14,606 bases of DNA, taken from a virus (Duplodnaviria; Heunggongvirae; Uroviricota; Caudoviricetes). This document shows positions 6,273 to 14,378 of this stretch, piece by piece. Under the pieces are notes generated by a model. That model worked only from the letters and a program-made list of their open reading frames with translations, searched no databases and had not been told where the DNA came from. The stretch is from the IMG/VR virus record IMGVR_UViG_2703718848_000009; one strand, 5' to 3'. The stretch's first letter is position 1. Each line of letters opens with the position of its first letter. The position numbers were made by a program, and so were the translations under genes.

Positions 6273-6594
6273 CGTTACAACTGTCTACCGATATAATTGT
6301 TTGATTTATTTAATGTTATTAACACATAACAAAAAAACAATCTGCAAACTGTCTACCAACTCTCTACAGTATTAATACATTGATAATTAATGACTTTTAC
6401 TAAATGGTAGACAGTGTAGATAGTTAAAAGAAAAATTTTAAAAATGAACCCATAACTATCTATTTTTAGATACCCCCGTGGTTTAGAAATATAAAATAAA
6501 CTGTCCACCTCTCTACCACATTAAAAATACCTATATAATTCAAAACATTAATTAGTAGATGGTTGGTAGAGGGTTAAGTGTATCTGTCTACCAA
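6273..6594. repeat. Iteron-like CTGTCTACC repeat array in AT-rich DNA, candidate replication origin downstream of the primase gene
   Basis: CTGTCTACC at 6281-6289, 6349-6357 and 6584-6592; inverted GGTAGACAG at 6407-6415; variants CTGTCCACC (6501), TCTCTACC (6510) and GGTAGAG (6565). Flanked by A/T runs. A 20-N gap follows at 6595-6614. Confidence 0.5.
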
Positions 6595-8391
6595 NNNNNN
6601 NNNNNNNNNNNNNNCTGGTAACCATCCATCAGCATCTTTATCTAACAGAACATTTGTGATCGTTCGCCCTTTATCTGGACCTTTAGTACATTTAGCCCGC
6701 TTGTACTCCTTTCCGTACTCAGCCATTGCCCCTGGCATATCTGTACCAAAGCGTGTCAGTGATACCGGTTTTCCCAGACCATGCGCAGACATATAAGCCA
6801 AATAAGCATGATACAGATATCGCCTCGGGCTAAATGGCACTATTTCTGCATTACCTACTATCATTCCCTCACATTTAACCAACGACATCAGATAACCGCA
6901 GAAGTCCACCAGCGAATCACCTTCACGCTTTATCAACAGTGCTTCTTCTGATTTTTGCTGCTCATAAAGTAGTCTTTTCGCTTCGTCCTGGTCGGCAAAT
7001 CGTGTAAGCAAATGGCGAATCACTACTGCCAGTTCCCCTTCTATCTTTTTCGCCAGCATCGGATCGCGTTCGTTCTCTGGTACAACCTCAGAGAAATTAA
7101 ATATTACTCGTCGACGCGAGATCCCCCCACTACGGTCGCTGAATGACATGGCATAATTGTTTACTACCAGCACTACCGCAGGAACGCGCGTGGAATAGGG
7201 CGCTTTGTGTTTCGGATCGATAGCCACCTTGTCACCGCCTGTAATGGCCTTAATCCCAGCACCATCACCTGCGTAGCGGGTCATGTCAGGCATGATAATC
7301 AGAGAATATCCCACCACTAACGCTCGTTCCCTCGCGTCTTCCAGCGCCTTCATGCTCGCCGATACTGTATTGGCCTTACCCGCCAGCATGGTACAAATCT
7401 CCGCCATCACACTTTTACCGCTTCCGCCCGGCCCCGTTACCTCAAGGAATAACTGCCAGTCGTACCGGTTCGCCAGTACCATGAATAATGCCGCCAGTAC
7501 GCGATCCGCTTTACGAGCATTATCCGCCACCGAACGACGCAACCACTTCCAGAAATTCGGCGCATGTGTTGCCAGCGTTTCCCCCTCTTCTGGCGGGCTG
7601 AACGGTAATTCACTGGCATTTAACAACCAGTCATTTTTGTTGTGTTCCCGAAAATTTCCTGTCCTGATATCAAAAACACCGTTACTGAACCCAATAAGAT
7701 TTCTGTCCGCTCCCCCCATAACAGGTAGACTCAATTTCATTGTCTCTACGGCAAATTTAATGGCGTTTTGCGAATAACTAATTTCGGCATCAATAAAAAT
7801 CTTCGCCATAGACCGCTGGAGTTCCTTATCAGATACAGGCTCCCAAACAATTCCGTTGTAATGGTGAACTACATCAGAATCATCATTTATCGCCAGTGCT
7901 CCTCCATAATGTTCAAGTAACACTTCCCCTCTCTGGCTGGCTCCCATCTGATTTAATGCAGGCTTGGGTAGACCACTATTTTTTGTAGCTAATTTCATCA
8001 CTGAAACTTCCCCGTGCTCAGCCTGTTCGCGGATCCGTTGCAGGTAGTCGCGCCAGTTCTCCGGTTCCTGGTCGGTGATACCTTTGTATAATTTCGCCTC
8101 CTGTACGCCAGCCAGCGCCAGCTTTTCAGCGATAGTATTGATCTGGATTGGCTCTATCTCCCCCGCGATATAGACACGCGCAAAACGGCGTTTCTCGTCA
8201 ATAATGCGGATATTCGCCAGGTCTGCCAGTTGCTTTGGCCCCAGGTAAACAGGAGGCACGTTATCGCCGTGTTTTCGTCCTTCACTTTCAATCCAGTGTT
8301 GAGCATGGGCGTAAGCATCCGTCCCGGCAAAAATGATTACCTCAGTGAATTTATCCTTCGGCTGATATTTTAGACTCGGTGCGTTTTTCAC
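6574..8391 (-). CDS. Phage/plasmid primase, P4-family (alpha-like) with SF3-helicase-type P-loop NTPase domain
   Basis: 605-codon ORF. Walker A motif VTGPGGSGKS and a downstream Walker B-like hydrophobic-acidic stretch (LIIMPDM). The C-terminus is interrupted by the N-run at 6595-6614 (X residues in the translation), so the 3' end is uncertain. Confidence 0.85.
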   Translation of the reverse strand: MKNAPSLKYQPKDKFTEVIIFAGTDAYAHAQHWIESEGRKHGDNVPPVYLGPKQLADLANIRIIDEKRRFARVYIAGEIEPIQINTIAEKLALAGVQEAKLYKGITDQEPENWRDYLQRIREQAEHGEVSVMKLATKNSGLPKPALNQMGASQRGEVLLEHYGGALAINDDSDVVHHYNGIVWEPVSDKELQRSMAKIFIDAEISYSQNAIKFAVETMKLSLPVMGGADRNLIGFSNGVFDIRTGNFREHNKNDWLLNASELPFSPPEEGETLATHAPNFWKWLRRSVADNARKADRVLAALFMVLANRYDWQLFLEVTGPGGSGKSVMAEICTMLAGKANTVSASMKALEDARERALVVGYSLIIMPDMTRYAGDGAGIKAITGGDKVAIDPKHKAPYSTRVPAVVLVVNNYAMSFSDRSGGISRRRVIFNFSEVVPENERDPMLAKKIEGELAVVIRHLLTRFADQDEAKRLLYEQQKSEEALLIKREGDSLVDFCGYLMSLVKCEGMIVGNAEIVPFSPRRYLYHAYLAYMSAHGLGKPVSLTRFGTDMPGAMAEYGKEYKRAKCTKGPDKGRTITNVLLDKDADGWLPXXXXXXXLVDRYT

Positions 8392-9467: not shown

Positions 9468-9684
9468 GGTGCACCTCCTGCACATCAGCCATGATAATTT
9501 TTCCGGCCTTATCCAGTGCCTGATCGGCTTTTAGCTGCACAAATGCTAAATAATGGGAGATGCATTCTGATTCTCTGGCTGCGTGTTTATGCGCCACACC
9601 AGCGATAGCAGAAATCTCAATAAGTGAATCCATCAGCGTTTTGATAGCGTCTACCGCTGCATCAGGCCATGTTGCATTACACAT
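9460..9684 (-). CDS. Hypothetical protein (74 aa)
   Basis: ORF with 8-nt overlaps on both sides within the operon. Confidence 0.45.
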   Translation of the reverse strand: MCNATWPDAAVDAIKTLMDSLIEISAIAGVAHKHAARESECISHYLAFVQLKADQALDKAGKIIMADVQEVHHA

Positions 9685-9880
9685 GTTCCACCTCCTGGCG
9701 AATACGGGCGGCGAATACCATCACGCAGCCATCAGGAGATTGCTGGCGTGCTTCCTGTTCGCTGGTGGCCTCGATGTGAATTACGCGCGGTTGTGCCGTG
9801 CTCAGGGCGATAAAACGCCAGATGTATTTATTCAGGTTGTGCGAGTCCCGCCCTTGCGGGTGTGTGGTATGATTTCTCAT
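9677..9880 (-). CDS. Hypothetical protein (67 aa), probable first gene of the replication operon
   Basis: ATG at 9880 preceded by GAGGT Shine-Dalgarno (5-nt spacing). It is the in-frame C-terminal part of the 435-codon ORF, but has its own RBS and lies just downstream of the operator palindromes. Confidence 0.45.
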   Translation of the reverse strand: MRNHTTHPQGRDSHNLNKYIWRFIALSTAQPRVIHIEATSEQEARQQSPDGCVMVFAARIRQEVEHV

Positions 9881-10984
9881 AGCTACCTCGATACTCTTGC
9901 TATCGTTGGTGGTTAGACGCCCTGCATGTGTGCCACCACTGCGGGGCGTTGTCGTTTCTGCACCTTGCATCAACAAGGTGTTGAACACCAATTTAAGCCC
10001 AGGTGTTAAACACGTCAAGTGTTGAACACTTATTTTTTTTCCTGCATACTGCATTTGTTTTTTGTAAGGGGTACACAACATGGCGACAAAAGCAGTAAAC
10101 GCAAAATCACAAACAGTTGCGGCAAGGGTTCCGCATGAAGTTATGAACAATGTTGAGGCGGTAAAAATGCCTGGTGAAAGTACAGGGCAGTTTGTAACAG
10201 CAGCATTAAAGCGAGAAGTTGAATACCGCCAGCGCCGCAAGGCCAAAGAACAGGAGTAACCATCACCAGCGCCGTGGTGTGAGGAACTACGGTGCATCGT
10301 TTTACAGGGCTGCGCCATGACCAACAAAGAATCAACCAATACACCATCACCGGCACGGAAAAGACAGCGCAGAAAGATAGCGTACGAGCATGAGTCAAAC
10401 AGATTCGCGCCCTGTGCGTTTATCCTTGAGAAATTCCTTAAAGAGTACAGGCGCACAAAAATGGGGTCGCATACCTGGAAAACATCGCGGCATGGCAATG
10501 TTAAAGAGCAGGAATAGCCCACCAGCAAGCCAGCATATTCACCATAATGACCCTCAGTTAAACATAGAGTCATTGGTGCAAAGCTGACACATTGCCCACC
10601 AGCCGCAAATCTGGCATTGTTGGCGATGCGTTCAAGTATGTAGCTTTCCCACTGGCGGCCCTCTGCGGTCGCCTTTGTTTTATCCAGAACGAAATCAGAC
10701 ATCAGATTGATCAGCACCTGGCGACCTGACAAAATCGCATCAGTCGCGCCACCAGCAAAATTTTTTGCTTTCCGGACAGTGTGACCAACGACATTTTGCA
10801 GCAAAATATTCTGCATTTCTGGCGTGCTGTAGTAACGGTGATCAGCGCCTTCACTCTGTGCGACCACAACGCTATAATCTGCCTCGTAGACAGTAAGCAA
10901 TATGGCGCAGTAGGCTATTCGTTCACAAAGGCGCTCCGGCAACGGGGCGCTTTCTCTTTTTGTAACGGTCAGAGCGTTACACAT
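9677..10984 (-). CDS. Uninterrupted 435-codon ORF; only the N-terminal ~140 residues look protein-like. Probably a real ~140-aa hypothetical protein whose stop is missing or shifted, running on antisense to the RHH gene
   Basis: ATG at 10984 overlaps the stop of the antirepressor-like gene (translational coupling). Residues 1-~140 have ordinary composition; the remainder is Cys/Ser/Thr/Arg-rich and low-complexity and lies opposite the plus-strand RHH gene and operators. Confidence 0.35.
   Translation of the reverse strand: MCNALTVTKRESAPLPERLCERIAYCAILLTVYEADYSVVVAQSEGADHRYYSTPEMQNILLQNVVGHTVRKAKNFAGGATDAILSGRQVLINLMSDFVLDKTKATAEGRQWESYILERIANNARFAAGGQCVSFAPMTLCLTEGHYGEYAGLLVGYSCSLTLPCRDVFQVCDPIFVRLYSLRNFSRINAQGANLFDSCSYAIFLRCLFRAGDGVLVDSLLVMAQPCKTMHRSSSHHGAGDGYSCSLALRRWRYSTSRFNAAVTNCPVLSPGIFTASTLFITSCGTLAATVCDFAFTAFVAMLCTPYKKQMQYAGKKISVQHLTCLTPGLKLVFNTLLMQGAETTTPRSGGTHAGRLTTNDSKSIEVAMRNHTTHPQGRDSHNLNKYIWRFIALSTAQPRVIHIEATSEQEARQQSPDGCVMVFAARIRQEVEHV
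9961..10031. promoter_or_regulatory. Cluster of GTGTT-N-AACAC palindromic operators in a divergent promoter region
   Basis: Perfect palindromes GGTGTTGAACACC (9977-9989) and AGTGTTGAACACT (10018-10030), imperfect GGTGTTAAACAC (10002-10013), plus inverted repeat CACCTTG...CAAGGTG (9961-9980). Followed by a T8 tract and the RBS of the plus-strand ribbon-helix-helix gene. Confidence 0.5.
10080..10259 (+). CDS. Ribbon-helix-helix (CopG/Arc-like) transcriptional regulator, 59 aa; not in the supplied ORF track (below its length cut-off)
   Basis: ATG at 10080 with AAGGGG Shine-Dalgarno 7-8 nt upstream; TAA at 10257-10259. Translation MATKAVNAKSQTVAARVPHEVMNNVEAVKMPGESTGQFVTAALKREVEYRQRRKAKEQE shows the classic RHH pattern (beta-strand TVAARVP, helix, G-x-S loop, helix FVTAAL). 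Palindromic operators immediately upstream. Confidence 0.55.
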   Translation: MATKAVNAKSQTVAARVPHEVMNNVEAVKMPGESTGQFVTAALKREVEYRQRRKAKEQE

Positions 10985-11768
10985 GGCTGTTTTCCTCCAT
11001 GCGACGGGCTAACCAACGCTGCGAAAGACGAATTAATTCAGCCTTCCGCTGGTGGTAGTCCTGGCCTAACTCAATCAGCGTGATATTGCTCTGCTCAAGG
11101 TAAGAAAGGTGCTCAAGCTGCAACGTGCTCATGTGGTCGCGTGGTTCGCCTGTAATGCCGTTCGCCAGTGCCCACTGTTTTGCAGTCATGCCACCCAGCA
11201 CGATACGCGCCAGCATGTTCGCTTCCGTGGTGTAGTGGTGCTGGAGTGTGTTTTTACCCAGTTCAGCCCGGTACGCCTCCAGCGCGGCACACATTGGCTT
11301 AAAGTAGCTGGCAACTGTGATACGGGCTTTCAGTTCCCGGCGTAACGCTGCGGAACGAACAGGCGCAACCTTGTGTAGCTCCTCCTCGCATTTGATAAAG
11401 TACTGGCGAACGGCGCGGCCCTGTTCGGTACGTTCGACCATCGCCAGTTCTTTCGCCATGTTCACTGTGATGATGTACTCAAGAGCGGTTTGCTGGCGAG
11501 ATTTTGCGCTCACCGGATCGGGTCGGCTCAAATATTCAACAACCTCATAATCCACGCCTTCCGTGAACCCGTATTCTTCAATGNNCCACGAACGGAAAAC
11601 GCGCCCTACACCTAACGCCTTATGTAACGCTCTGGCGCTAACAATAGTGGTTTCACTCCCGCCAATAACGCCGGAAATAATCGGGATAATTTCGCCGAAA
11701 TTTTGCAGATTCTGGTTTTCAGGCCGAACGAAGCCCCGCCCCTGTACGGGCGTTTTTGGAAATTTCAT
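10977..11768 (-). CDS. Phage-associated protein, possibly antirepressor/Bro-N-like DNA-binding protein (function uncertain)
   Basis: 263-codon ORF directly downstream of alpA. Contains ALHKALGVGRVFRSW, reminiscent of phage antirepressor N-terminal domains. One residue is masked by NN at 11584-11585. Confidence 0.6.
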   Translation of the reverse strand: MKFPKTPVQGRGFVRPENQNLQNFGEIIPIISGVIGGSETTIVSARALHKALGVGRVFRSWXIEEYGFTEGVDYEVVEYLSRPDPVSAKSRQQTALEYIITVNMAKELAMVERTEQGRAVRQYFIKCEEELHKVAPVRSAALRRELKARITVASYFKPMCAALEAYRAELGKNTLQHHYTTEANMLARIVLGGMTAKQWALANGITGEPRDHMSTLQLEHLSYLEQSNITLIELGQDYHQRKAELIRLSQRWLARRMEENSHV

Positions 11769-11845: not shown

Positions 11846-12043
11846 TCAGGTAGCTGTTCCGCGTGATTCCGCAATACGCTGATTAATCCACTCGTCAATT
11901 TCACTCTCAACGAAAGCAATAGCTCGCGAGCCAATTTTAACTGATGCAGGAAATTTACCTTGCCCCATAAGGCGATAAATCCATGCCTTGCTATATCCAG
12001 TTCTACGCTGAACTTCTGTTAAACGAATAAGCGTATTTGACAT
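11846..12043 (-). CDS. alpA: AlpA-family phage transcriptional regulator (HTH)
   Basis: MSNTLIRLTEVQRRTGYSKAWIYRLMGQGKFPASVKIGSRAIAFVESEIDEWI matches the AlpA consensus (L.RL.EV...TG.S...IYRL...G.FP..VK.G.R...W.ESEI.EWI). GAGGT Shine-Dalgarno 7 nt upstream. Confidence 0.85.
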   Translation of the reverse strand: MSNTLIRLTEVQRRTGYSKAWIYRLMGQGKFPASVKIGSRAIAFVESEIDEWINQRIAESRGTAT

Positions 12044-12111
12044 ATATTTACCTCATAACGTCTACTCAATTTGACGAGGTAATCATGGCACAGAAATAAC
12101 GAATATTTTCA

Positions 12112-12222
12112 TACCCTCAGGCCTAATGGTTACCGGAAGGAAATCTACCCTAAGGGTGATGGTAAAATTGACGGGGAAGATAAAAAAATACCCTCAGGGT
12201 AACAGTAAATCACCCTCAGGGT
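12112..12222. promoter_or_regulatory. Four copies of the palindrome ACCCT-N-AGGGT upstream of alpA; putative operator array
   Basis: accctcagg at 12113; accctaagggt at 12147-12157; accctcagggt at 12190-12200 and 12212-12222. Located between the end of the 267-aa gene and the alpA start. Confidence 0.5.
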
Positions 12223-12237
12223 ATGCGGTATGGTGCG

Positions 12238-13041
12238 TTAATCCGGCTTTGCGTTCTTTTGGCTGTTGTCTCGGTTAATAGGGCAGGCAGTCCTCTCTAT
12301 GAGCGTTGCAAGTGCATTACTTGCCCCCCACTGCTTAAGTTCCCTGGTTATCGCTTCTTGATTTCCCCTGGTGGCAAAATCATTTTCTGGATCGTAATTG
12401 GCCCACTCTCTGTTTCTAATCTCAATAGCCTTAGCTAATGGGTCTTTATCCCAGTATTTATATAAGTGTATCGGGCGCTCTTGCTCTAACTGCTCTATCC
12501 TTGCCCTTAACTCTGCGTTTTCTTTTTCCAGCATTGCGATTTGGGATAATAAATCATCCTCTGTACGCAACTCTTTCTTTTCAATATCGCGTCCTTGTGC
12601 CTCGTCATTTTCAGAAGAGTTAGCGCCTTCCAGCTTCGTTAACGCGTCAAGGACATCGGGAAAAATTGAGAAAATTTCACCCCTTATAAATCCAATGTTC
12701 TCAAATTCGGGATCTTCCCAATAACCGGACACCAGAAAACCATTTTCATCCCTCTCACCAGGTAAACAACCACGTTTCCGAACCGCATTCAGATTTCTAT
12801 AAAGAACATCATTATCAAATTCATCCCGATACGGGTTACAAAAAGATTCCAACAGCTTAAATTCATTTACTGTGTACAGGCGGATATGTTCTCCGCTTAT
12901 TCTCCTGAGTATCCAAGTTATGACATCTGAAACATCATAATCATCACCAGCGACCTTAAGCACGACCTCAAGAAATTCACGTAAAGAAATAAAATCTTTT
13001 TTGTATTCGTTTAATTCGGCATGAATATCAATCATACGCAC
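12238..13041 (-). CDS. Hypothetical protein (267 aa) with a central coiled-coil segment; AT-richer accessory gene between int and alpA
   Basis: 267-codon ORF with GAGGTG Shine-Dalgarno upstream. Heptad-like stretch LLSQIAMLEKENAELRARIEQLEQER. Composition noticeably more AT-rich than int or alpA. Confidence 0.65.
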   Translation of the reverse strand: MRMIDIHAELNEYKKDFISLREFLEVVLKVAGDDYDVSDVITWILRRISGEHIRLYTVNEFKLLESFCNPYRDEFDNDVLYRNLNAVRKRGCLPGERDENGFLVSGYWEDPEFENIGFIRGEIFSIFPDVLDALTKLEGANSSENDEAQGRDIEKKELRTEDDLLSQIAMLEKENAELRARIEQLEQERPIHLYKYWDKDPLAKAIEIRNREWANYDPENDFATRGNQEAITRELKQWGASNALATLIERTACPINRDNSQKNAKPD

Positions 13042-13163
13042 ACCTCAGCGTCCTCTACTGTAGTGGCTGTACCAGTCCGTCGAGGTGTACGGATTTTCGG
13101 GAGCGACCCTAGACACAGCCTTTTCTTTCGTCGCTCAAAGTCTACTACTGTATACTCAACCAG

Positions 13164-14378
13164 TCACCCGCATTTTCCGAACTCACCATGCACCACATTT
13201 CCGCCATGCTCGAGCGAATCCATATAATCAGCGTACCACTGAAGCATTTCCCGCCGCCCATCCAGATATTGCGCATGGTTGTATGTGCCACGAATTGAGT
13301 TTTTATCGACGTGCGCAAGCTGTGTCTCTATCCACGCGGTGTTATAGCCCTGCTCATGCAAAATGGTGCTCATAGTGTGCCGGAAGCCATGACCAGTAAC
13401 CTTTCCGTTATAGCCGATGCGTTTAAATACTTGGTTTATGCTAGCCTCGCTCATTGTTTTCCTTGGATCATTACGGCCGGGAAACATAAGCGGATAATTG
13501 CCAGTTAGTTCTTTAATCTGCCCAATAAGCGAAAGAGCCTGCTCAGACAAAGGCACTACATGAGGGCGACGCATTTTCATCCGTGAAGCAGGTATCTCCC
13601 AGATAGCCTTGTTGAGATCGATTTCATCCCATAATGCACCGCGCAGTTCGCCAGTCCGCAAACCGGTGATAATCAGTAAACGAGCCGCCATAACAACCAA
13701 TGCACTTCCTGAGTAACTGGACAATGCCTTGAAAAAATCAGGTAATTCTTTGGCTGTGAGGAAAGGATAATGATTAGATTCATGACCTTGCATCGCGCTG
13801 GTGAGATCCGGTGCAGGGTTATACTCAGCACGTCCAGTGACAATTGCATAGCGGAAAACTTCCCCACATCGCTGCCTCACTTTTTTGGCTTTTTCGGTAG
13901 CACCGCGCCCCTCGATGCGCCGCAGCACATTCAGCAGTTCAAGTGGTTTGATTTCGGCGATTGGTTTTTTGCCAATGTAAGGGAACACATCTTTGTTGAA
14001 GGCTTCGAGGATGTCTGAAGCATAACCAGCAGACCATTTTTTTAATTTGCTGCTGTGCCACTCAAGGGCAATATCTTTGAAGGTGTTGTTTAACTGCGTT
14101 TCCCGGGCAATCTTTTCCTCTCGTTTCGCTTCCATCGGATCGATACCCCCAGCGATACCCCTTTTAGCTTCTTCACGTTTTGCACGAGCATCAGCCAAGG
14201 TAACTTCAGGATACACACCTAGTGCTAACAGCTTCTCTTTACCAGCTACACGATACTTGAAGCGCCAATATTTTCCTCCACTAGGTTTTACCAAGAGATA
14301 CAGACCACCACCATCAGCCAGCTTGTAAGCCTTCTCTTTTGGCTTGGCAGTGTCTATTTGACGGGCATTGAGTTTCAC
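13164..14378 (-). CDS. int: Tyrosine recombinase, P4-type integrase
   Basis: 404 aa. N-terminal MKLNARQIDTAKPKEKAYKLADGGGLYLLVKPSGGKYWRFKYR is the typical P4-integrase N-terminus. Catalytic-domain residues R..HxxR..Y are present (GLRTGELRGALW, GHGFRHT, RGTYNHAQY). GTG start with GGAGG Shine-Dalgarno. Adjacent to the tRNA-derived att core. Confidence 0.9.
   Translation of the reverse strand: MKLNARQIDTAKPKEKAYKLADGGGLYLLVKPSGGKYWRFKYRVAGKEKLLALGVYPEVTLADARAKREEAKRGIAGGIDPMEAKREEKIARETQLNNTFKDIALEWHSSKLKKWSAGYASDILEAFNKDVFPYIGKKPIAEIKPLELLNVLRRIEGRGATEKAKKVRQRCGEVFRYAIVTGRAEYNPAPDLTSAMQGHESNHYPFLTAKELPDFFKALSSYSGSALVVMAARLLIITGLRTGELRGALWDEIDLNKAIWEIPASRMKMRRPHVVPLSEQALSLIGQIKELTGNYPLMFPGRNDPRKTMSEASINQVFKRIGYNGKVTGHGFRHTMSTILHEQGYNTAWIETQLAHVDKNSIRGTYNHAQYLDGRREMLQWYADYMDSLEHGGNVVHGEFGKCG

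Follow-up and report, generated by a model that had tools for sequence, protein, structure and literature searches.

Phased palindromes upstream of alpA in an enterobacterial satellite and their association with the ORF267 protein family

The element and its gene order

How is alpA kept silent or switched on in Gram-negative satellites, and which protein reads the short palindromes that are repeated in front of this gene? The question is raised by a stretch of viral DNA of 14,606 nucleotides (referred to below as the window), in which a first-pass annotation had described four palindromes upstream of alpA as a candidate switch that senses helper-phage induction. Its premise that AlpA acts as activator in PICI-like elements agrees with the published background: AlpA activates the Gram-negative PICIs, and the helper phage induces the alpA promoter by way of an unknown factor (PMC6092414, PMC11773190).

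The window is 99.8% identical in sequence to E. coli chromosomes, where the element is found at a tRNA-Thr gene beside proA. The same tRNA-Thr site is used by the published PICI EcCIMP1 (PMC11773190). On the basis of this identity and of the shared location, the element can be classified as an enterobacterial (E. coli) PICI/P4-like satellite integrated at tRNA-Thr.

The minus strand carries the whole co-directional row int - ORF267 - alpA. The row starts with a tyrosine integrase gene (int, 13164-14378, minus strand; PF00589, PF13356 and PF22022), which is followed by the Rfam int-alpA RNA motif (13052-13119, minus strand; RF02996, 45.5 bits versus a gathering score of 35.8) and by ORF267 (12238-13035, minus strand). 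The latter encodes 265 aa from the ATG at 13035 (267 aa from the alternative GTG at 13041), and its product is the protein that we propose as the binder of the sites. An intergenic gap of 194 bp (12044-12237), which holds all the palindromes, separates ORF267 from alpA (11846-12043, minus strand; 65 aa, identical to WP_000072422.1; PF05930, E 2.4e-19). After alpA come an AntA-family gene, an Icd-like region with a plus-strand RHH gene (YlcI/YnfO), a DUF4222 gene and a D5-type primase gene, and ProQ/FinO-like and PerC genes are located farther along the element. Runs of ambiguous bases occur within 6574-8391 and 10977-11768 and appear as X in the C-terminus of the primase and in AntA. A minus-strand ORF of 435 aa (9677-10984) is probably not a gene; the matching E. 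coli records annotate an Icd-like gene and the plus-strand YlcI/YnfO RHH gene instead. The window element has no match to Rfam C4 or isrK (the P4 CI-type immunity RNA), unlike the related elements L004, L005, L007 and L134.

Palindromes in the gap between ORF267 and alpA

The range 12044-12237 extends exactly from the start of alpA (12043) to the stop of the upstream ORF (12238). The earlier count of three full palindromes and one half-degenerate palindrome was borne out, with three exact copies and one copy carrying two mismatches, and the location was correct as well, the gene downstream of the sites being a PF05930 member (E 2e-19). What the first-pass annotation did not contain is the 265-aa ORF, unannotated, that lies immediately upstream of the sites.

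The distal site O4 (12212-12222; ACCCTCAGGGT, an exact match) lies 15 bp past the ORF267 stop codon. At a distance of 22 bp from O4 it is followed by O3 (12190-12200; ACCCTCAGGGT), which is embedded in a 13-bp palindrome, TACCCTGAGGGTA (12189-12201). Site O2 (12147-12157; ACCCTAAGGGT) is located 43 bp from O3, inside a 33-bp unit (about 12133-12165) that occurs in variable copy number. The proximal, degenerate site O1 (12113-12123; ACCCTCAGGcc, with two mismatches, or GGCCTGAGGGT on the minus strand) abuts the predicted -35 of the alpA promoter. The centre-to-centre spacings in the window thus are 34, 43 and 22 bp, and the palindromes can partly be extended to TACCCTNAGGGTA. The 14.6-kb window contains no exact copies of ACCCTNAGGGT other than the three at 12147, 12190 and 12212, and the sites are unique also within the matching 28-kb E. 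coli region. As a null, 200 dinucleotide-preserving shuffles of the window were used: these contained on average 0.01 exact copies of ACCCTNAGGGT, and none of the 200 reached three. Taken alone, O1 is not significant as a match; its counterpart CCTGAGGGTATGAAAAT is kept in relatives.

Two further sequence features of the gap can be mentioned. The core CCTNAGG of the palindromes (12113-12222) is the recognition sequence of Bsu36I/Eco81I-type restriction enzymes, a likeness that is probably coincidental as the conservation reaches past CCTNAGG. In addition, the sequence AA(A/T)TTGACG(A/G)GG occurs twice on the plus strand (12068-12079 and 12165-12176), each copy with a perfect TTGAC opposite to the alpA strand; the two copies could be antisense -35-like elements.

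The gap sequence is present in 148 of the 5426 complete E. coli genomes. The 33-bp unit, with its one palindrome, occurs once in the window, twice in L002 and three times in L003 (related loci are referred to by L numbers); the longer form, with the unit twice, is found in 117 of the 148 carriers and three copies in a few. In L008-L011 the identity of AlpA is 100% and the 95 bp nearest to alpA are almost unchanged, but the distal part of the gap has diverged strongly. Even so the palindromes are kept there, the central base being free and the flanks changed. Site O4 is retained with changed flanks in L008-L011, L135-L137 and L160-L165, and palindromes are kept also in Citrobacter, Salmonella and Yersinia (L135-L137), in metagenomic relatives (L160-L165) and in IMG/VR contigs. 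The proximal site O1 is conserved as (A/G)GCCTGAGGGTATGAAAAT in L162-L165, and its equivalent in Salmonella (L136) is a perfect 18-bp palindrome, TACCCTGAGGCCTCAGGGTA.

A spacing of 21-23 bp between O4 and O3 recurs among the relatives. In total, 64 centre-to-centre spacings were collected from 20 loci and these fall only in the ranges 21-24, 31-34, 42-44, 54-55 and 64 bp, i.e. whole multiples of about 10.8-11 bp, whereby the copy number shifts by steps of 33 bp. A quantisation at about 11 bp is a property of DNA and therefore points to proteins bound on one face of the helix. Judged by comparison of the sequences, the sites are non-random, conserved, helically phased and under selection. This conservation and phasing make them good candidates for the regulatory switch in front of alpA that was suggested earlier; the binders named in that suggestion are not supported. 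A scan of genome contigs for paired palindromes yielded, among the matches listed, unrelated repeats in Chloroflexota, Desulfobacterales and other groups.

The palindromes accompany the ORF upstream of alpA

The first-pass annotation considered AlpA, the RHH protein, the HTH protein or another repressor as binder of the palindromes. AlpA does not fit, as the same AlpA recognition helix is found with ACCCTNAGGGT, with CCGCAATTGCGG or without sites, and four different helices are found with ACCCTNAGGGT: YSKAWIYRLM in the window, YGKAWIYRLI in L161, CSKPWLYKLI in L162/L163 and the SDSTFQEMINAGEFP type in L141 and L138. In L141, where AlpA is very different (SDSTFQEMINAGEFP type), three sites are present at distances of 21 bp, the first of them at the stop codon. 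The RHH protein (YlcI/YnfO) is identical in L002/L003 and L006 although the palindromes differ, and among elements that share the same palindromes it is 35-100% identical or absent. PerC, ProQ/FinO, AntA and the HTH protein of 202 aa likewise vary or are missing among the elements that carry sites. The suggestion of "another repressor" fits only if this repressor is the ORF immediately upstream, which had not been considered.

Natural recombinants are informative in this respect. L006 has the AlpA helix YGRAWIYKLI, an upstream ORF of 251 aa and two copies of CCGCAATTGCGG, 21 bp apart. L132 and L133 have the L006 helix YGRAWIYKLI, but a third, unrelated ORF of 302 aa, and carry two copies of ATTTAATTTAAA, 20 bp apart. 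Conversely, L210 combines an L006-type ORF (81% identity) with the window-type helix YSKAWIYRLM, and it carries two copies of CCGCAATTGCGG. The window-type AlpA helix is found also in L005 and L007 (EcCIMP1), which have another ORF or none, and ACCCT sites are absent from these loci. L176 and L197 combine an L004-type AlpA with a family ORF and contain four ACCCT sites, whereas L004 itself has none. L195 contains a diverged family member with two copies of TACCCTCAGGGTA behind it, and alpA is missing downstream.

The tallies point in the same direction. All 20 loci with a core-family ORF contain one to five copies of ACCCTNAGGGT (with at most one mismatch), compared to none of the six alpA loci with another ORF or no ORF. 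In an IMG/VR scan that was anchored on the motif alone, the family module was recovered in 33 of 40 matches, with fewer than 50 nt between the end of the ORF and the sites. Distant family members display the same geometry with altered bases, namely TACCGTNACGGTA (L262), ACCCTNAGGGC (L260) and ACTATNATAGT (L139/L144). The half-site variants are ACCCT/AGGGT, ACCGT/ACGGT (L262, L138), ACCCT/AGGGC (L260) and ACTAT/ATAGT (L139/L144). The arrangement of the sites differs in L142/L259, and a scan of viral contigs for pairs of ACTATNATAGT gave unrelated AT-rich matches only.

From the recombinants and the tallies it follows that the sites go with the ORF between int and alpA, and not with AlpA or the other DNA-binding proteins. 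We consider it probable, on this association, that the ORF267-family protein is the cognate partner of the sites. Given the adjacency of ORF and sites, the association could partly reflect linkage rather than function.

Other, unrelated genes in the int-alpA gap have paired palindromes of their own, about 20-21 bp apart: the 251-aa coiled-coil protein goes with CCGCAATTGCGG and the 302-aa protein with ATTTAATTTAAA. These alternative arrays are located at 2699-2812 in L006, at 2613-2710 in L132/L133 and at about 7325-7445 in L210. This suggests that a "gene plus cognate sites" cassette is a general feature of the int-alpA position.

The ORF267 protein family

ORF267 is built from an N-terminal alpha/beta domain, an acidic linker, a leucine zipper and a conserved C-terminal domain of four helices (about residues 187-255). 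The zipper comprises four heptads, with Leu162, Leu169, Leu176 and Leu183 at the d position and Ile166, Asn173 and Ile180 at the a position, and it is kept across the family alignment. In GCN4-type zippers, an Asn at the a position favours parallel dimers. The ORF267 zipper should thus be a dimerisation element suited to palindromic sites, a parallel dimer being expected from its sequence.

The conserved domain of about 70 aa can be summarised as ERPILL.KY.DDDPL.LAIEIRNREWANYDP...AI..EL...G....A.AIE.VACPI.R. and every array of sites follows a gene that ends in this conserved part (leucine zipper plus the helical domain of about 70 aa). The rest of the protein, towards the N-terminus, varies and is nearly absent in members of 147-158 aa that keep the sites. 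Among 1.84 billion protein representatives the family comprises 116 clusters, in proteins of 150-385 aa in which the conserved part always forms the extreme C-terminus. A word-indexed search gave 43 matches, which come without exception from Enterobacteria and gut metagenomes. A C-terminal domain distantly related to that of the family is present in the L004-type ORF (hhalign 82%); none was found in the L006-type ORF.

ORF267 itself has no family match in Pfam, PHROG, NCBIfam or PADLOC, and a Pfam scan of 81 family members gave coiled-coil noise only. AlphaFold (AF2) models (pLDDT 75 for ORF267 and 79 for the second model) display a long helix (159-186 in ORF267) followed by a four-helix bundle. 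Fold searches with both models returned only weak matches of no decisive value, and the C-terminal domain was not assigned to a recognised DNA-binding fold. With a pI of 4.7 ORF267 is acidic as a whole; only its C-terminal domain is non-acidic, and across the family this domain is no more than mildly basic or neutral, which counts against the proposed role as binder. One homologue carries the NCBI name "bZIP transcription factor". In the literature searched, neither the ORF267 family nor the palindromic sites are described.

The alpA promoter and the direction of control

A consensus scan of the region upstream of alpA detected no strong sigma-70 promoter. Three blocks are conserved between the window, L136, L161, L162, L164 and L165: ATGAAA, directly adjoining the proximal site O1, a T-rich spacer of 19 nt, and TGn with a -10-like hexamer (CATGAT in the window). 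We infer that these blocks form a weak alpA promoter (12075-12112, minus strand) with -35 ATGAAA (12112-12107), the 19-nt spacer and an extended -10, TGcCATGAT (12090-12082), and with a start near 12075. With this start, the sites would be centred near -43, -77, -120 and -142. The absence of a strong promoter in the scan fits with a promoter that needs help or is easily shut.

Between the predicted start and alpA a leader hairpin can be drawn from the sequence (12048-12082, minus strand), in which UUACCUCGU (12082-12074) pairs with the Shine-Dalgarno (SD) region of alpA (12058-12048), AUGAGGUAA. Its consensus fold has seven pairs, two of them with compensatory changes, and equivalent SD hairpins of different sequence are found in other alleles (L004, L005, L006 and L210). 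The predicted promoter start is located inside the 5' (anti-SD) arm of the hairpin. For this reason a message initiated at the alpA promoter would be open to translation, and read-through from int and ORF267 would not.

With these elements a mechanism can be formulated. We give about an even chance to the reading that the palindromes are a phased operator array for a dimeric ORF267-family protein, which would control alpA, most likely by repression. Each zipper dimer would read one 5-1-5 palindrome, (T)ACCCT-N-AGGGT(A). Because the sites are at whole helical turns (22, 33/34 and 43 bp), the dimers would be placed on one face of the DNA and could bind cooperatively. Occupancy would then spread from the strong distal sites to the weak proximal O1, which touches the -35 of the poor alpA promoter. 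As a consequence alpA, the self-activating master switch for excision and replication, would be off in the resting satellite, and a helper-phage signal acting on the variable N-terminal part might release it. Four steps of this scheme are inferences: that the protein binds the sites directly, where the promoter lies, that alpA is repressed and not activated, and that a helper phage is involved at all.

Repression is favoured for three reasons: ORF267 is part of the int operon, so that its expression in the resting state is to be expected; AlpA activates itself and is harmful, and such a switch needs a brake (PMC6092414); and the variable N-terminal part would suit a helper-specific release, as with Stl. 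The direction of control is nevertheless the least secure step, since activation would fit the geometry just as well. The sites are all located upstream of the predicted -35, and none overlaps the -10 or the start. A weak site centred near -43 is a classic activator position. With all sites upstream of the -35 and the weak one near -43, repression is not favoured by geometry alone.

The ORF267-family protein might accordingly bind the sites as an activator or sensor, which at -43 would recruit RNA polymerase to the weak alpA promoter upon a helper signal. The arrangement would allow this: the weak O1 is centred about 43 bp upstream of the predicted start with stronger, phased sites beyond it, and the promoter has a poor -35 and a 19-nt spacer, its -10 and start being free of sites. 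We nevertheless hold activation to be rather unlikely: the promoter position is itself a prediction, ORF267 as part of the int operon is probably expressed in the resting state, and the roughly 800 bp that come after the sites in L195 are without a co-directional gene.

Neither direction makes the module a general switch. The model PICIs EcCICFT073 and EcCIMP1 lack such an ORF and yet are helper-inducible (PMC6092414, PMC11773190), which implies that the ORF267 module cannot be universal.

Other readings of the sites

Instead of the ORF267-family protein, a host or helper-phage protein could bind the palindromes, the ORF267-family protein merely cooperating with it or being linked to the sites. 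Such a binder would be in line with the unknown identity, in the literature, of the helper factor that induces alpA (PMC6092414), and with the C-terminal domain of ORF267 not having been assigned to a recognised DNA-binding fold. It is an unlikely reading, however, in view of the distribution of the motif, which is confined to loci that carry the domain (in Escherichia, Salmonella, Citrobacter, Yersinia and metagenomes) and which changes in the diverged family members. Moreover, the domain is not encoded in phage genomes (a helper-encoded homologue was sought by tblastn in 50,697 phage genomes without a match) and the motif scan of viral contigs revealed no clusters in helper-like phages.

We regard it as very unlikely that the sites are autoregulatory operators through which AlpA binds and activates its own promoter. 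In favour of this reading, AlpA activates its own promoter in EcCICFT073 and probably does so in EcCIMP1 as well (PMC6092414, PMC11773190), the palindromes precede alpA, and the alpA allele and the gap always occur together in the E. coli genomes. Against this stand the distribution of the AlpA helices described above (the same helix with other palindromes or none, and four helices with ACCCTNAGGGT) and the presence of sites without alpA in L195; moreover, small winged-helix proteins of the recombination directionality factor type usually bind direct repeats (PMC7498355, PMC11963761). The AlpA model of P. aeruginosa (an antiterminator with its ABE between -35 and -10; PMC7969949, PMC9371919) does not apply, as that protein is larger, has a C-terminal HTH and binds as a single molecule, a build unlike that of the 65-aa AlpA.

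We regard it as highly improbable that the palindromes act in the RNA, where small hairpins at the 3' end would terminate or stabilise the int-ORF267 transcript and so shield alpA from read-through. Two copies are terminator-like on the minus strand, one of them followed by T7, and the first site always lies within about 50 nt of the ORF stop codon, but the stems have only 4-6 bp, the sequence is conserved and not merely the pairing, the centre base is free, the 11-bp quantisation of the spacing belongs to DNA, and in the L132 module the equivalent sites consist of A and T only. An intrinsic terminator is not indicated either, with a T7 tail only at 12189-12201 and no tails in L141, L136 and L161.

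Several known types of site were considered and rejected. An excisionase (RDF) array is at odds with the inverted orientation of the repeats and with their distance of more than 2 kb from the int-proximal end, helical phasing being the only feature that agrees. The TGT-N12-ACA dyad of P2 Ogr/P4 Delta late promoters is absent from both strands of 12044-12237. A LexA operator, searched as a CTGT-N8-ACAG box with at most one core mismatch, was not found, and published alpA reporters did not respond to SOS alone; control by SOS is therefore not indicated. The RNA motif RF02996 is not the feature in the gap, since its sole match (13052-13119) lies upstream of ORF267 and none is found in 12044-12237.

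Relation to known regulatory systems

The closest parallel to the proposed ORF267 operator system is Stl of the S. aureus pathogenicity islands. In both cases a highly variable, satellite-encoded protein is found beside int, with sites in front of the gene or genes that start excision and replication, and in both the protein is modular, combining a conserved DNA-reading part with variable parts that could sense different helper proteins. They differ in layout, ORF267 being co-directional with int and alpA with the sites 3' of ORF267, whereas Stl is divergent with the operators in between. ORF267 lacks an HTH of the Stl/CI type, has no sequence or fold relation to Stl, and would target alpA, which codes for an activator. 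For ORF267 it is a hypothesis that it represses and that a helper protein relieves the repression; what the alignment shows is that its N-terminal part varies.

Similarly, lambda CI at OR/PRM binds short palindromes as dimers, with strong and weak sites joined by cooperativity and a weak site beside the -35 that is able to repress or to activate. The ORF267 sites have a 5-1-5 structure with half-site centres 6 bp apart, whereas the CI operators are 17 bp long; the ORF267 dimer would be formed by a leucine zipper, and the sites are downstream of the regulator gene and not between divergent promoters. With the AlpA/Vis-type regulators of P4-like elements and PICIs the module shares the int - alpA - Bro/AntA zone - primase setting and alpA as the regulated master gene. 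Here, however, the sites do not follow AlpA, and EcCICFT073 and EcCIMP1 are without an int-alpA ORF or palindromes (L007). The resemblance to bZIP proteins (GCN4/AP-1) lies in a heptad zipper with Asn at the a position and in a short palindrome with a single central base. The stretch preceding the zipper of ORF267 is acidic, unlike a basic region, and the candidate DNA-reading part is the C-terminal globular helical domain. As proposed here, the ORF267/site module works like a repressor-operator pair of the Stl/CI kind, but without the divergent layout and the HTH.

The genes between int and the regulator have been treated as accessory cargo or as a slot for it (PMC10085698; also PMC6092414, PMC11773190, PMC10111431), a view that runs counter to a regulatory role of ORF267. 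The silencing of Gram-negative PICIs and the switching-on of alpA by the helper have been an open question since 2018, and there is a moderate to high chance that the module points to an unrecognised regulator of Gram-negative satellites. The candidate is concrete: an unannotated family of small proteins with defined sites of 11-13 bp, for which natural recombinants and specificity variants are available. If the link between protein and sites is true, satellite biology would gain a layer of regulation, a new module for sequence-specific DNA binding would be defined, and int-alpA gap genes that are now called accessory cargo would be reclassified. If it is false, the sites remain among the best-supported conserved non-coding elements of these islands.

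More speculatively, the variable int-alpA genes of many enterobacterial PICI/P4-like satellites might be Stl-like master regulators with cognate operators, and not cargo. The ORF267 family would then be a new DNA-reading module (the zipper plus the C-terminal helical domain, reading TACC-NT-N-AN-GGTA) with a swappable N-terminal sensor of a particular helper-phage protein. We put this generalisation forward tentatively and consider it possible but doubtful.

The int-alpA RNA motif and gaps without an ORF

The int-alpA RNA motif (13052-13119) is located between int and ORF267 and not beside alpA. The placement is the same in L006 (3585-3653), L136 (2419-2486) and L141 (1717-1780). At the gathering score the RNA was not found in the ORF-less L007 (EcCIMP1) and L134, and the idea that ORF-less elements carry it in a long gap is thus unsupported. 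L007 (2677-3103) and L134 (2616-3257) do have long int-alpA gaps, and these contain four direct repeats of approximately CTCTTTAAMA and several hairpins. It is possible that these repeats and hairpins are sites of AlpA or of the helper factor in the published model element.
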